This document shows, one piece after another, positions 14,215 to 17,518 of a stretch of 64,000 nucleotides of DNA (position 1 is its first letter; each line of letters opens with the position of its first letter). Source of the stretch: a phage. The DNA lies in assembly GCA_018995085.1 (NCBI GenBank), contig GCA_018995085.1_3936.1; one strand, given 5' to 3'. Position numbers and translations under genes: made by a program. Under the pieces are notes generated by a model. It saw nothing but the letters and a program-made list of their open reading frames with translations. It did not search any database and was not told where the DNA came from.

Positions 14215-15630
14215 ATGAGCGAATTATTTAAACATGCGCACCTTCATGCAGGTCGAACTGAAAATGGTGCTGTAAACCATACTTCATCAATGTCTGCTCT
14301 TGTAGACTTTTACAAAGCTGCTGGTTCAAGCCGTAGCAATGTAGAAATCTTACCAGACTTGTTCTACAAAGCTTTGCGTGAAGATGTTGATGTTGCAGTT
14401 CGTATTTTGCTGCATATGCGAGATGTACGAGAAGGTATGGGTGAGCGTAAAGCCTTCAGAACTGTTTTACTTCAAGCAATTGAAGATAAGGTTTTAGAGC
14501 CTACACAGGTTCTTCGCATTATGGATAAGATTGCAGAACTTGGTCGTTTTGATGACTTCAAAATCTTCGTGGGTACTCGTTTCGAGACAGATGCCTTCAA
14601 ACATTTAGAAGCAGCATTACTAGACCCTGCAACATCAGGTTTGGCAGCTAAGTGGTTACCACGAGTCAAACCACGTCATAAGCAGTTTGTAAAACGTTTC
14701 TGCAAGTTTGCCAACTTGAGTGAGAAAGAGTACCGCACACTGTTGTCTGCACTATCTGATACAGTTGAACAAAAAATCTCTGCTAATGAGTTTGGTAAGA
14801 TTGACTACAGTAAGATTCCTTCACTTGCTGCTGCACGTTACCAAAAACTCTTTAACCGTAAAGATGGAGAACGCTACAAAGCTTACATTGAGTCCTTATC
14901 AAAGGGCGAGACTAAGATTAATGCTGGTGCTGTTTACCCATACGATGTGATTAAATCTGTCAAGCGTGGTAATGCAGATGTTGCTAATGAGCAGTGGAAA
15001 GCACTACCAAACTGGATGGCAGAAGGTGAAAACATCTTGTGTATGTCTGATGTATCAAGTTCAATGTCTTGGGTGAATTTTGGCTCCATTACTGCTCTGG
15101 ATATTGGTGTATCACTTGCCTTGTATGTAGCAGAACGCAATACAGGTTGCTTTAAGAATGAGTTGATGGTTTATTCAACAAACCCTCACTTCATCGAACT
15201 GAGTGGTGATTTACGAAACCGTCATCGTCAGGTGATGCGACACGTTGAATATGGCTCAACTAACTTACAAGCAGCTTTTGACCGCATTCTTGAGGTAGGC
15301 AAAAGAAACAACTTGACTCAGAAAGATATGCCAAGTAAGCTTATCATCTTCTCCGATATGGAGTTCAATCAGGTTGATGGTGCTAACGGTCGTACAAACT
15401 TTGAAGCAATTCAGAGTAAGTACAAAAAAGCTGGATACGAAATGCCACAACTGGTATTCTGGTACTTAGCAAACCGTAATGGTACTTGCGAAGTGTCTGT
15501 TAAGGATAACGGTGTAGCAATGGTATCTGGTTTCTCTCCAGCCACTTTAAAAGCTCTGCTTGGTGGTGAGAAGTTTGACCCAATCAGTGTAATGCTCAAA
15601 GCAGTAATGATTGACCGTTATATCTGGTAA
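14215..15630 (+). CDS. vWA-domain protein with MIDAS motif, DUF2828/Ro60 (TROVE)-like architecture
   Basis: DVSSS (DxSxS) followed by downstream Thr and Asp positions typical of MIDAS; helical N-terminal half; 471 aa; sits immediately upstream of the tRNA array. Confidence 0.5.
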   Translation: MSELFKHAHLHAGRTENGAVNHTSSMSALVDFYKAAGSSRSNVEILPDLFYKALREDVDVAVRILLHMRDVREGMGERKAFRTVLLQAIEDKVLEPTQVLRIMDKIAELGRFDDFKIFVGTRFETDAFKHLEAALLDPATSGLAAKWLPRVKPRHKQFVKRFCKFANLSEKEYRTLLSALSDTVEQKISANEFGKIDYSKIPSLAAARYQKLFNRKDGERYKAYIESLSKGETKINAGAVYPYDVIKSVKRGNADVANEQWKALPNWMAEGENILCMSDVSSSMSWVNFGSITALDIGVSLALYVAERNTGCFKNELMVYSTNPHFIELSGDLRNRHRQVMRHVEYGSTNLQAAFDRILEVGKRNNLTQKDMPSKLIIFSDMEFNQVDGANGRTNFEAIQSKYKKAGYEMPQLVFWYLANRNGTCEVSVKDNGVAMVSGFSPATLKALLGGEKFDPISVMLKAVMIDRYIW

Positions 15631-15647
15631 AAAGTTTTAAAAAGGGT

Positions 15648-15677
15648 ATTGACAATGTGTTTAATACCCTTTAATAT
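15648..15677 (+). promoter_or_regulatory. sigma70-like promoter TTGACA-N17/18-TAATAT embedded in inverted repeat
   Basis: hexamers read directly; AAGGGTATT/AATACCCTT inverted repeat spans the -35. Confidence 0.5.
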
Positions 15678-15795
15678 GTTCTACATAGAAACGAAATGAG
15701 AGCTTTTCTAAGATACTGAAAAATATTTTAAAAAAGTTCTTGACAACCACTAAAAAATAATGTTAAAGTGGTTACATAGAGTTTGAAAAGTTTAT

Positions 15796-15872
15796 CTCTG
15801 TTTAGCTCAGCTTGGTAGAGCGTTCCGTTTGGGGCGGTAAGGCCGGAGGTTCAAGTCCTCCAACAGAGACCA
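15796..15872 (+). tRNA. tRNA-Pro (anticodon UGG)
   Basis: acceptor CTCTGTT/AACAGAG, D-loop AGCTTGGTAG, loop TTTGGGG, T-arm GGAGGTTCAAGTCCTCC, CCA encoded. Confidence 0.7.
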
Positions 15873-15879
15873 AATTAAT

Positions 15880-15957
15880 GTTCCAGTAGACAAAATGGTA
15901 AAGTCACCACTCTTTCAAAGTGGATATTTGAGGGTTCAAATCCCTTCTGGAACGCCA
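15880..15957 (+). tRNA. tRNA-Glu (anticodon UUC)
   Basis: acceptor GTTCCAG/CTGGAAC, anticodon stem CCACT/AGTGG, loop CTTTCAA. Confidence 0.65.
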
Positions 15958-16048
15958 GTTTTGACAGAAGACCAATTACAGCAAACTTAATCTTATTCAT
16001 CTGAAGGTAAATCGGACAAAGAAGAGATTTGGTCTGGTCATTAAGAAT

Positions 16049-16125
16049 TGCGGGTATAGAGAAAGGGCGTCTCACATGTCTCATTAGCATGGTATCGGCA
16101 GGTTCGACTCCTGCACCCGCCTCCA
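16049..16125 (+). tRNA. tRNA with CAU anticodon (Met, fMet or Ile2 undetermined)
   Basis: T-arm GCAGGTTCGACTCCTGC, loop CTCATTA with unusual position 37, 1:72 mismatch. Confidence 0.45.
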
Positions 16126-16208
16126 AATTTACAGAAGACCGTTTACAGCAACATTTATTAAATTTTTAGCGGAAAAATTGAAAGATACGGTCTGGTAATA
16201 CTAAACAT

Positions 16209-16285
16209 GGTTAGGAAGCACATAAGGTATGTGCGGTCGCCTGTTAAGCGAATGGCACAGGGTTCGAATCCCTGACTAACCGCCA
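16209..16285 (+). tRNA. tRNA-Asn (anticodon GUU)
   Basis: loop CTGTTAA, T-arm CAGGGTTCGAATCCCTG, CCA encoded. Confidence 0.6.
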
Positions 16286-16354
16286 AATTTAGGAGAGAAG
16301 CGATTGCTCACCGATTTGTAAGGTGCAAGTCCTTAGCCTGAATAGAAATTAAAT

Positions 16355-16442
16355 GTGTCGTTATCCCGTAGATGGTAGCGGTGGGGACTGTAAATCCCTT
16401 GTCATTGAGACTCGGTAGGTTCGACTCCTACACGGCACACCA
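16355..16442 (+). tRNA. tRNA-Tyr (anticodon GUA), long variable arm
   Basis: loop CTGTAAA, 88 nt, T-arm GTAGGTTCGACTCCTAC. Confidence 0.65.
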
Positions 16443-16447
16443 ATAAA

Positions 16448-16525
16448 GGTTATGTAGTTTAATCTGGTTAAAATACTCCCCTGTCACGGGAGATGATGAG
16501 GGTTCAAATCCCTTCGTAACCGCCA
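16448..16525 (+). tRNA. tRNA-Asp (anticodon GUC)
   Basis: anticodon stem CTCCC/GGGAG, loop CTGTCAC. Confidence 0.65.
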
Positions 16526-16724
16526 ATTTTGAGAGGGCTATTTAGCCCCTCCCTTAAAGAGTTCTTACGAGTATTCTTTAAAGGAGCAGAAGGCCAAATA
16601 CAGCAAGAATGTATGAAATTTCAAGCCAATTTAATTTTGAAAATTTAAAACTTGGTCTGGCTCAACAAATTTACAGAAGACCGTTTACAGCAAAACTTAA
16701 ACAATCTATTTCTCCGGTAAAGAA

Positions 16725-16790
16725 AAGGCGAAGGTTCGATTCCTTCACTCGGCAGATGTCGAGTTGGTGTAATGGTAGCACTTAAGATGA
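16725..16790 (+). other. tRNA half-fragments in inverted order (3' half followed by 5' half)
   Basis: AAGGTTCGATTCCTTCACTCGGCA directly precedes GTCGAGTTGGTGTAATGGTAGCAC; the two acceptor strands are mutually complementary. Confidence 0.35.
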
Positions 16791-16954
16791 TAAACAACGG
16801 TCTGGTAATTATCTTTGTAGATAAGTTATTAAGCTTACCTGTGAGTATGCGACCACAAAGGGTGAATGGGTAAATTCTAGATTTAAACCCAAAAAGGCAC
16901 ATCGCTACAGACCTTAAGCAAGTCTGGGTAGCTTATCTACAAAGATAATTTAAT

Positions 16955-17030
16955 GGAAGTGTAGCAGAATGGTGATGCGGCAGACTTTTAATCTGACAGG
17001 CGATGGGTTCGAATCCCTCCACTTCTACCA
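16955..17030 (+). tRNA. tRNA-Lys (anticodon UUU)
   Basis: loop CTTTTAA, acceptor GGAAGTG/CACTTCT; T-stem has only 3 clean pairs. Confidence 0.55.
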
Positions 17031-17034
17031 ATAT

Positions 17035-17111
17035 GGTTCAGTCGCAGATAAGGTAATGCAAGGGTCTCATAAGCCCTATGAATGTGGGTTCGATTCCCAT
17101 CTGAACCTCCA
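17035..17111 (+). tRNA. tRNA-Met (anticodon CAU)
   Basis: acceptor GGTTCAG/CTGAACC perfect, loop CTCATAA. Confidence 0.7.
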
Positions 17112-17112
17112 A

Positions 17113-17188
17113 GCTGGTATAGTTAAGAAGGTTATAACACTCCCCTGATAAGGGAACATCGGTGGTTCGATTCCACCTACCAGTACCA
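17113..17188 (+). tRNA. tRNA-Ile (anticodon GAU)
   Basis: loop CTGATAA, T-arm GGTGGTTCGATTCCACC. Confidence 0.65.
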
Positions 17189-17203
17189 ATTTCAATAAAG
17201 TTG

Positions 17204-17232
17204 TTGACATTGAGATGTGACTACTTTATAGT
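17204..17232 (+). promoter_or_regulatory. sigma70-like promoter TTGACA-N17-TATAGT
   Basis: near-consensus hexamers with 17-nt spacer; followed by about 200 nt with no ORF, then an atypical tRNA-like gene. Confidence 0.6.
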
Positions 17233-17436
17233 AACCTTAGTTTTCGTTGCGTAGCGTCTATTTTGCAAATTTAAAATAAATGCAAACGACAATGTTTTTC
17301 TGGCAGTAGCTTGATAGGCTAAACACCAGTGAGGTCTTCCAATCCCTCATCAAAGAATTTGGCGTACTCGCCCACGGTATGATTAATAAGGTGGGCATCT
17401 TTAAGGACTTTCTAAGAGAGTCTTTAAAGATAATTA

Positions 17437-17518
17437 CGGGGCGTATCTCAGCGGTCTTCTAAACCGCCGTTAACCGAGTAAGTGGAGTATGCGGGTTCGA
17501 GTCCTGCCGCCTCGACCA
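17437..17518 (+). tRNA. atypical tRNA-like gene (anticodon-like hairpin GCGGT-CTTCTAA-ACCGC, UCU; no recognisable D-arm)
   Basis: acceptor CGGGGCG/CGCCTCG plus ACCA, T-arm GCGGGTTCGAGTCCTGC; only 7 nt between acceptor and anticodon stem; 23-nt region before T-arm. Confidence 0.4.

Follow-up and report, generated by a model that had tools for sequence, protein, structure and literature searches.

The 64,000 nucleotide (nt) stretch of phage DNA analyzed here (contig GCA_018995085.1_3936.1 of GenBank assembly GCA_018995085.1; hereafter the window) encodes a Ro60-like protein just ahead of a large tRNA array, and the question that this locus raises is which RNA, if any, the protein carries. Ro60-Y RNA particles are conserved from bacteria to humans, and human Ro60 is a major lupus and Sjogren autoantigen; their mechanism is debated, and few prokaryotic Ro60 systems have been studied so far. 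The window can be assigned to the genus Felixounavirus (14215–18500 matches Escherichia phage vB_EcoM_Alf5 at 97.4% identity along its entire length and Salmonella phage Felix O1 at ~96%), and the locus consists of a 471 amino acid open reading frame (ORF) and the first part of an array of 25 tRNA genes called by ARAGORN (15796–21372). An earlier note, made from the sequence alone, proposed a Ro-like ribonucleoprotein module in which the protein pairs with a promoter-driven, atypical tRNA-like RNA at 17437–17518. It placed the protein gene correctly, directly upstream of the array (the gene ends at 15630, and the first tRNA gene, for Pro, starts at 15796), and tRNA-mimicking RNAs do lie downstream on the same strand, but the RNA it named is the wrong one; the candidates are instead four modules, A–D, at 15966–16811.

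As judged from its predicted structure, the protein is almost certainly a Ro60 homolog by fold. Pfam identifies DUF2828 at residues 171–264 (E 2e-29) and, at residues 274–455 (E 9.6e-44), DUF7788, for which solved vWA domains give an alignment, and in PHROGs the protein belongs to a family labeled "RNA-binding protein." The AlphaFold model built from an alignment is confident (predicted local distance difference test 86, predicted template modeling score 0.86), with a helical N-terminal half and an alpha/beta C-terminal half, and the top twelve Foldseek matches to it are all Ro60 structures, the next being midasin MIDAS domains. The modeled ring of alpha-helical repeats and its vWA domain are superimposable on solved Ro60, and the predicted structural homology spans the whole length of the protein. 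The vWA domain carries a MIDAS motif of the form DxSxS...T...D (D279-V-S281-S-S283, T349, and D381), the five residues of which are invariant in an alignment of 36 homologs down to 42% identity. ORF, model, Pfam, and invariant residues thus agree with the earlier description of a helical N-terminal half, a C-terminal vWA domain with intact MIDAS, and Ro60-like architecture; the profile and structure comparisons bear out its DUF2828/DUF7788 and Ro60 fold parts but not a TROVE match by sequence. In a tblastn search, members of the family turn up in 710 phage records, whose hosts belong to many genera and range from Escherichia to Listeria, Mycobacterium, Campylobacter, and cyanobacteria, and some mycobacteriophage annotators call its members "Ro-like RNA binding protein." In the fetched record of phage Bas63, bas63_0130 shares 97% identity with the window's protein and is flanked by the same neighbors.

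Reading the gaps of the tRNA array revealed four unannotated copies of the pattern ...AGA(C/G)CNN-UUACAGCAA...NNGGUCUGG. These modules (Table 1) have a common plan: a terminal helix of 7–8 bp, in which the outer A-U and G-C pairs are conserved, is followed on its 5' side by an invariant, single-stranded CAGCAA and has a conserved G on its 3' side; this combination is called the handle below. Module A starts 336 nt past the stop codon of the gene, on the + strand, between tRNA-Glu and tRNA-Met, and has the helix AGACCAA/UUGGUCU, then UUACAGCAA, and a short variable insert. Module B lies between tRNA-Met and tRNA-Asn (helix AGACCGU/ACGGUCU, then UUACAGCAA), and module C follows tRNA-Asp (helix AGGCCAA/UUGGUCU, then AUACAGCAA). 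The insert of module D is a circularly permuted tRNA-like domain: the minimum free energy fold of 16668–16815 has a terminal stem inside which V, T, closed acceptor-like, and D stem-loops follow one another, which is the layout of the bacterial Y RNA YrlA. Rfam sees in module D only a partial tRNA match (16697–16747, 22 bits). Pairing across modules, in which each GGUCUGG strand would pair with the AGACC strand of the next module and enclose a tRNA, was rejected, since it is 1–2 bp worse than pairing within modules and since the extensions inside each module covary (AA/UU in A and C, GU/AC in B and D).

The same elements accompany the gene in other phages. Eighty viral loci with homologs of the protein (39–99% identity) were searched for T arms outside predicted tRNAs, and in the distant ones (40–46% protein identity) the T/closed acceptor/D arrangement of module D recurs within ~1 kb of the gene; the acceptor-like stems there have no sequence relationship, the T and D arms are of the usual kind, and the terminal helix has a UACAGCAA-like motif after its 5' strand. 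Eleven elements from 9 loci keep this order of arms, and the sequence of the acceptor stem varies from lineage to lineage. A short version, 55–70 nt long, occurs in many other loci and combines the same helix and motif with a plain insert; a covariance model (R1) was built from an alignment of 18 such short modules. Run on both strands of the window and 70 loci (677 kb), R1 has 88 matches at E ≤ 1; every one lies on the strand of the gene and nearly all fall within ~2 kb of it, and 44 of the 71 sources are matched at E ≤ 0.01. In the whole 64 kb window there are only three R1 matches, modules A, B, and C, all just downstream of the gene; the ortholog of module D in locus L016 scores 31.9 bits. 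With a strict hand-written descriptor, the gene strand has 120 matches and the opposite strand 3; 56 of the 80 loci are matched, and 27 of these have no tRNA gene within the fetched stretch; thus, the element follows the gene and not tRNA arrays.

As a negative control, R1 was run over 100 viral loci (851 kb) that had been fetched for a tmRNA (transfer-messenger RNA) pattern. Thirty-two of its 33 matches there are in Felixounavirus loci, with an orientation that follows the gene where the gene lies within the locus; the remaining one (L176) is in a locus without a detectable homolog within the fetched stretch, and the HK620, 121Q, DP01, St11Ph5, and Matapan loci have none. R1 matches also abut the gene in phages outside the training set, with three upstream in Listeria phage LMLPA3, three downstream in Staphylococcus phage S-CoN_Ph6, two downstream in mycobacteriophage Rumpelstiltskin, and others in Yersinia phage P778. 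The helix and CAGCAA handle co-occurs with DUF2828 genes in phages of both Gram-negative and Gram-positive hosts. Among 59 R1-aligned matches there are compensatory changes at all 7 pairs of the terminal helix (168 double changes), each position of CAGCAA is kept in 56–59 of the 59, and the G that follows the 3' strand in 58. Ninety-nine percent of the 413 helix cells are paired, against 27–44% when the partner column is slid, a percentage that is inflated and partly circular because the seeds were picked by a rule demanding complementarity and the alignment was fitted to the model; the choice of seeds has no bearing on the strand bias, on how close the matches lie to the gene, or on the controls.

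Besides this circularity, several observations weigh against making the modules Y RNAs of this protein. The protein has no sequence match to TROVE or Ro60 (Pfam at E ≤ 1 gives DUF2828 and DUF7788 only, and NCBIfam and PADLOC likewise give none) and finds no Ro60 chain among PDB sequences at E ≤ 10, either with phmmer or with a 36-sequence profile; a sequence-level link to Ro60 was dropped, and the relationship is visible by fold comparison alone. By the strict descriptor, 24 of the 80 DUF2828 loci have no module. The Rfam YrlA model (RF02553, gathering cut-off 69 bits) has no match at E ≤ 10 over the 429 nt slice 16526–16954, and its sole match in 15600–21600 is a chance one over tRNA-His/Phe. 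Filing the modules directly under YrlA was dropped, as that model has no real match in the window. The known Ro-binding motif that Y RNAs carry close to their 5' end, GNCGAA(N)G, is absent, the conserved motif being (U)UACAGCAA instead. The folding energy of module D is unexceptional relative to shuffled sequences (z = −1.53), as is that of the tRNA-like RNA at 17437–17518 (z = 0.04), so the evidence for both is comparative. The link of any module to the protein is genomic only, its correlate being adjacent, co-oriented Y-like RNA genes, from which we infer Y RNA binding. Finally, gp130 of Bas63 alone, without phage RNAs, rescues phage T7 on a host with the Ppl defense gene (PMC11482910), so its counter-activity against Ppl, at least, is independent of phage RNAs.

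On the other side of the balance, the modules lie within about 4 kb of the Ro60-like gene on the same strand, as YrlA genes do, and a bridge to YrlA exists in Enterococcus phage GVEsP-1, where the Rfam YrlA model matches two modules (47.8 and 35.8 bits, E 1e-7 and 3e-4) that lie directly upstream of the DUF2828 gene and have ACAGCAA after the helix. The RNA family is not in Rfam 15. On balance, modules A–D probably are RNA partners of the Ro60-like protein. In the same GVEsP-1 locus (L214 2290–2840) a conserved hairpin, UAGUUCC...GGAAC-AUAAAGAA, stands 5' of each of three Y-like modules; it may belong to the RNA itself or mark a processing site.

The locus is probably best explained as a phage version of the Ro60-Y RNA ribonucleoprotein system, made up of a divergent Ro60 relative (DUF2828 plus vWA) and its own class of Y-like RNAs. 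Modules A–D would be transcribed with the tRNA array, perhaps from the promoter-like sites at 15649 and 15740, and would be released by tRNA-processing enzymes or nucleases. The protein would then bind the helix/CAGCAA handle, as the counterpart of the GGUCCGA or GNCGAA site in known Y RNAs, and the variable insert (tRNA-like in D) may recruit or decoy a tRNA-binding partner, either a host exoribonuclease such as polynucleotide phosphorylase (PNPase) or a tRNA-directed defense or repair enzyme. PNPase is a candidate by analogy with Deinococcus, Salmonella, and phage phiLo, and a tether to PNPase specifically is doubtful. More broadly, DUF2828 proteins and helix plus CAGCAA RNAs might form a second, undescribed branch of the Ro-Y RNA system that spans many phage groups and uses modular RNAs as decoys or tethers against host defenses directed at RNA or tRNA, with Ppl the first known target; we offer this tentatively, as a proposal a little short of an even chance. 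The RNAs of such a branch would join a constant protein handle to interchangeable cargo, which could range from none at all through a T arm to complete tRNA mimics of either circular permutation.

The alternative that survives best, although an improbable one, is that the modules act in cis, as processing or stability signals of the tRNA array or as an autoregulatory untranslated region site in the mRNA of the gene (possibly still bound by the protein). The modules of the window flank tRNAs, and in many loci a single 55–70 nt module starts 30–400 nt past the stop codon or has its end shortly before the start codon, which would allow it to be part of the mRNA. However, the 27 module-bearing loci without a tRNA gene nearby are not compatible with tRNA-processing signals, and there are up to four to six tandem copies with different helices. 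In addition, inserts can be full tRNA-like domains, the YrlA model recognizes the Enterococcus phage relatives, and KVP40-like phages have the same handle within an open, CCA-ended tRNA-like RNA. Less probable again is a protein-only inhibitor, in which, for example, the vWA/MIDAS face blocks Ppl and the adjacent RNAs are functionally unrelated. Such an activity accords with the restoration of plaquing on the Ppl host by gp130 alone, whether on a plasmid or inserted in T7 (PMC11482910), with the frequent role of MIDAS motifs in protein-protein contacts, and with the midasin MIDAS domains that follow Ro60 among the fold matches. Host RNAs could serve the protein in the T7 experiment, however, conservation covers the whole Ro60 ring and not just the vWA domain, and the strict same-strand, adjacent co-occurrence of handle and gene across distant phage groups would be hard to explain without a functional link. 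Modules A–D as partners of the protein remain the preferred reading.

The RNA named in the earlier note, a promoter-driven transcript ending in 17437–17518, is very unlikely to be a Y RNA bound by the protein: it is a tRNA mimic without a D arm, ~1.8 kb downstream on the same strand, and the genes of known Y RNAs lie no more than a few kb from Ro60 (PMC4201824), but it lacks the helix/CAGCAA handle, R1 has no match there, and sister Felixounaviruses with the same protein, Bas63 included, have a canonical tRNA-Arg(UCU) in its place. Its structure had been described correctly, with acceptor stem, T arm, and anticodon-like hairpin but no D arm. The Rfam tRNA model passes 17437–17515 narrowly (31.7 bits, cut-off 29) and ARAGORN makes no call; the alignment has a 7 bp acceptor stem, the hairpin GCGGU-CUUCUAA-ACCGC (5 bp stem, 7 nt loop), and a T arm, with 4 nt in place of 15 model positions of the D arm and a 20 nt insertion before the T arm. 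When the orthologous interval of 13 Felixounaviruses is aligned, the slot holds one of two alleles, the D-armless RNA or a 77 nt canonical tRNA-Arg(UCU), the latter called by ARAGORN at the same offset in eight relatives and annotated in Bas63. The D-armless RNA is thus an allelic replacement of the canonical tRNA of the sister phages. It recurs at 83–90% identity in 121Q, Klebsiella phage GZ8, alia, and pEC-M2929; in 121Q and alia its neighbors are tRNAs, and in GZ8 it precedes an HNH gene. In six copies from different phages the acceptor, anticodon, and T stems covary with compensatory changes and the CUUCUAA loop (U33, UCU, A37) is invariant, which points to a decoding tRNA, or a close mimic, for AGA/AGG codons and not to a Ro partner. 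An alanine acceptor or tmRNA tRNA-like domain was considered, since the window has G2:C71, G3:U70, G4:C69, and A73, and was rejected, because alia and pEC-M2929 have G3:C70 and the discriminator alternates between A and G among homologs.

Members of the D-armless family (the window copy, L004 2499–2580, and copies in L217, L218, and L219) have invariant UAUCUCA and CGUUAAYCGAGUAANUGGAGUAU where the D arm and variable region would be, and the 121Q copy is annotated as tRNA-Leu. An HNH homing-endonuclease gene (17533–17880; phrog_2255, E 1e-40) is inserted directly 3' of the D-armless tRNA in the window. It likewise directly follows the GZ8 copy, and it is missing in some close relatives (for example, L005 and L096), where the tRNA adjoins the downstream spacer.

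Table 1. Features of the Ro60-like locus and the adjacent part of the tRNA array (window coordinates)
Feature	Position	Strand	Basis or sequence
Sigma-70-like promoter match, TTGACA-18-TAAAGT, 10/12	14146..14175	+	Consensus scan; sequence match only
Ro60-like protein gene, 471 aa	14215..15630	+	ORF; Pfam DUF2828 + DUF7788/vWA; phrog_850
Y-RNA-like module A	15966..16039	+	R1 45.5 bits, E 2.5e-7; fold
Y-RNA-like module B	16133..16197	+	R1 50.6 bits, E 1.5e-8; fold
Y-RNA-like module C	16588..16662	+	R1 39.3 bits, E 7.9e-6; fold
Y-RNA-like module D, circularly permuted tRNA-like domain	16670..16811	+	Minimum free energy fold, comparison
Module D helix, 5' strand	16678–16685		
Module D UACAGCAA	16686–16693		
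Module D V hairpin	16709–16725		
Module D T arm	16730–16746		GAAGG-UUCGAUU-CCUUC
Module D closed acceptor hairpin, 7 bp	16747–16764		ACUCGGC-AGAU-GUCGAGU; then UG
Module D D arm	16767–16781		GUGU-AAUGGUA-GCAC
Module D helix, 3' strand	16796–16803		then G 16804
Near-consensus sigma-70-like promoter, TTGACA-17-TATAGT, 11/12	17204..17232	+	Consensus scan
tmRNA-like RNA, mRNA-like domain only	17240..17436	+	Sub-threshold Rfam tmRNA; ~80% homologs
Atypical D-armless tRNA, loop CUUCUAA (UCU), encoded CCA	17437..17518	+	Rfam tRNA; comparison

The near-consensus promoter of the earlier note holds up as the best promoter match in 13500–18500, but it belongs to a tmRNA-like gene and not to the Ro module. 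The ~200 nt behind it, described as ORF-free and counted as part of that module, do contain only a mechanical 46 amino acid minus-strand ORF (17233–17436), but they are not featureless; they form a separate tmRNA-like gene that is also present in HK620, without a Y-like module in the fetched locus. Its tag frame (17282–17317; GCA AAC GAC AAT GTT TTT CTG GCA GTA GCT TGA TAG, or ANDNVFLAVA followed by two stops) is preceded by AAAAUAAAU in the conserved core, opens with an Ala codon and no start codon, has a hydrophobic C-terminus, and has its stop codons in a hairpin loop; stable hairpins follow, and the 3' part of the RNA folds with z = −5.75. The core resembles the tag region of Escherichia coli tmRNA, whose tag is ANDENYALAA. 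By blastn, 17273–17397 is ~80% identical to unannotated DNA of HK620 (late leader), Klebsiella phage DP01, N4-like St11Ph5, and Kuttervirus, and the DP01 homolog likewise sits right behind a promoter match (TTGACA...TAGATT). The tags of the relatives (ANEEMYLAVA, ANDDVVLMAA, ANDNTFLAVA) differ mostly by synonymous changes; five of the six tag codons that differ between the window and Kuttervirus are synonymous, which suggests that the frame is read. A pattern scan of viral contigs adds many more tags with LAA, MAA, or AVA at the end, some lying within two-piece tmRNAs called by ARAGORN.

In the window itself ARAGORN calls no tmRNA, and on 17240–17436 the Rfam tmRNA and tmRNA_permuted models stay below their cut-offs (17.2 and 29.2 bits, cut-off 47 each). 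No alanine-accepting tRNA-like domain (T arm and acceptor strands) was found in the interval from promoter to tRNA or in the HK620 and DP01 homologs. Two-piece (permuted) tmRNAs formed with the T arm of tRNA-Ile (the tmRNA_permuted match) or of module D (an ARAGORN "tmRNA*" call in L089) were judged spurious because the promoter or three tRNA genes separate the pieces. The tmRNA and the tmRNA of mycobacteriophage DS6A that has only a tRNA-like domain (PMC4131195, PMC11915505) serve as comparison for 17204–17518 only. As in tmRNA, the frame at 17282 starts with GCA (Ala) and ends in hydrophobic ...LAVA and a double stop, the context of the resume codon is AAAAUAAAUGCAAACGA as in tmRNA models, and Ro60-carrying phages (Bxz1-type, Bacillus phage G) also have tmRNA genes. 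Unlike tmRNA, the RNA has no acceptor/T-arm domain within it and no Rfam or ARAGORN call, and, unlike the DS6A RNA and tmRNA, the adjacent tRNA-like RNA keeps its anticodon arm and does not conserve G3:U70. The tmRNA-like RNA and the D-armless tRNA(UCU) are neighboring, independent translation-related genes.

Promoter-like sites are not in excess in 13500–18500 (13 observed against 11.1 ± 3.4 in shuffled sequences); the upstream match in Table 1 lies 40 nt 5' of the Ro60-like gene. Two further structured regions lie in this part of the array. Between module D and tRNA-Lys, 16810–16954 can form a highly stable 145 nt RNA structure (−46.6 kcal/mol, z = −6.2) with a 21 bp closing stem and four inner hairpins, one arm of which is CAGAC-CUUAAGCAA-GUCUG. 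At 18018–18102 there is another tRNA-like sequence, whose anticodon loop is of the CCA (Trp) type and whose D arm is poor; in the window it is called by neither ARAGORN nor Rfam, and its counterpart is annotated as tRNA-Trp in VpaE1_ev78 and called by ARAGORN in locus L096.

Some DUF2828 loci of other phages have neighbors of their own. An RtcB gene lies near the DUF2828 gene in Listeria phage LMLPA3, and an RNA ligase gene lies near, and directly upstream of, that of GAP32, where a hibernation-factor gene is also nearby. About 1 kb upstream of the LMLPA3 gene is a match to ROOL RNA (L211 1428–1979; 89 bits, E 1e-16, cut-off 99.1 bits), in a block that also holds tRNAs, a ribosome-associated inhibitor gene, and the RtcB ligase gene. 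In three Aeromonas-phage-type (Ah1-like) jumbo contigs of 221–233 kb, the same handle (the stem, then UCCGCAA or ACGGCAA) is closed by a tetraloop and takes the place of the anticodon arm in an open, CCA-ended tRNA-like RNA (L047 7770–8200, L054 7935–8390, L065 7536–7990), which makes this RNA the circularly permuted form of the Y-like RNA of Felix-type phages.

That the protein resembles Ro60 was already known from annotation pipelines and one preprint, and phage Ro60-Y RNA pairs were known for TROVE-type proteins. Apparently new are the identification of the RNA family, its non-GNCGAA handle motif, its breadth across phage groups, and its modular or permuted cargo; the searchable literature holds no description of these RNAs, although subscription journals or the supplement of Chen et al. 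(2014) could, and papers on "DUF2828" concern plants and tardigrades only. A genetic screen found that this protein family shields phage from a defense system, with its RNAs only guessed to be among the "tRNAs" (PMC11482910). The four modules are concrete, testable partner candidates with a simple conserved handle. If binding is confirmed, E. coli phages would offer a large, genetically tractable set of Ro-like particles, and Y RNAs would emerge as modular scaffolds for tRNA mimicry. The proposal, if true, would also account for hundreds of unannotated gaps in phage tRNA arrays, some of them annotated as small ORFs on the wrong strand.

Among known systems, the closest is that of Bas63 (JohannRWettstein), whose gp130 is the same protein in the same position before the tRNA array. 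The PhageMaP preprint noted its structural similarity to Ro60, suggested that some Bas63 "tRNA genes" might be Y RNAs, and found that deletion of g130 impairs growth on a host with the Ppl defense gene, gp130 counteracting Ppl (PMC11482910). Partner RNAs were not identified there, and, unlike that suggestion, the candidates described here lie in unannotated gaps and not among annotated tRNAs. Bas63 modules C and D are where the minus-strand ORF bas63_0137 is annotated (L209 14749–15023); bas63_0138, just downstream, lies over the structured RNA that follows module D, and bas63_0142 (15450–15590) over the tmRNA-like RNA. These three are probably misannotated RNA genes, and knockout phenotypes ascribed to them may in fact report on the underlying RNAs.

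Bacterial Ro60 (Rsr) with YrlA/YrlB is known from Salmonella, Mycobacterium smegmatis, and Deinococcus radiodurans, and from 22 phages, mostly mycobacteriophages; YrlA has V, T, AS, and D stem-loops within a stem that bears the Ro site (Chen et al. 2014, PMC4201824). The locus shares with these systems a ring plus vWA protein, small RNAs within a few kb on the same strand, a terminal stem with a (here predicted) protein site and a variable module, at least one RNA whose tRNA-like domain runs V, T, closed acceptor stem-loop, D, and several distinct Y RNAs (here candidates) per genome. RNA-repair ligase genes are nearby in some genomes, as in the Salmonella rsr-yrlBA-rtcBA operon. Unlike Rsr, the window's protein is of the DUF2828/DUF7788 type, with TROVE not detected by sequence; unlike Yrl RNAs, its RNAs have the invariant CAGCAA 3' of the 5' strand of the helix instead of GNCGAA(N)G and are beyond the reach of the Rfam YrlA model. 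The modules are also interleaved with a 25-gene tRNA array, and many members of the handle family have no tRNA-like insert at all. Thermus phage phiLo encodes a recognizable TROVE Ro60 whose RNAs, unlike those described here, carry a CGAA motif and lie upstream, and neither a tRNA array nor a CAGCAA handle is reported for it. It nevertheless has the same combination of a phage-encoded Ro60-type ring protein and adjacent Y-like RNAs (two, Yrl1 and Yrl2), and the complexes that these form with host PNPase (PMC12135203; PDB 9KOP, 9L5Y) provide the model for the mechanism proposed here.

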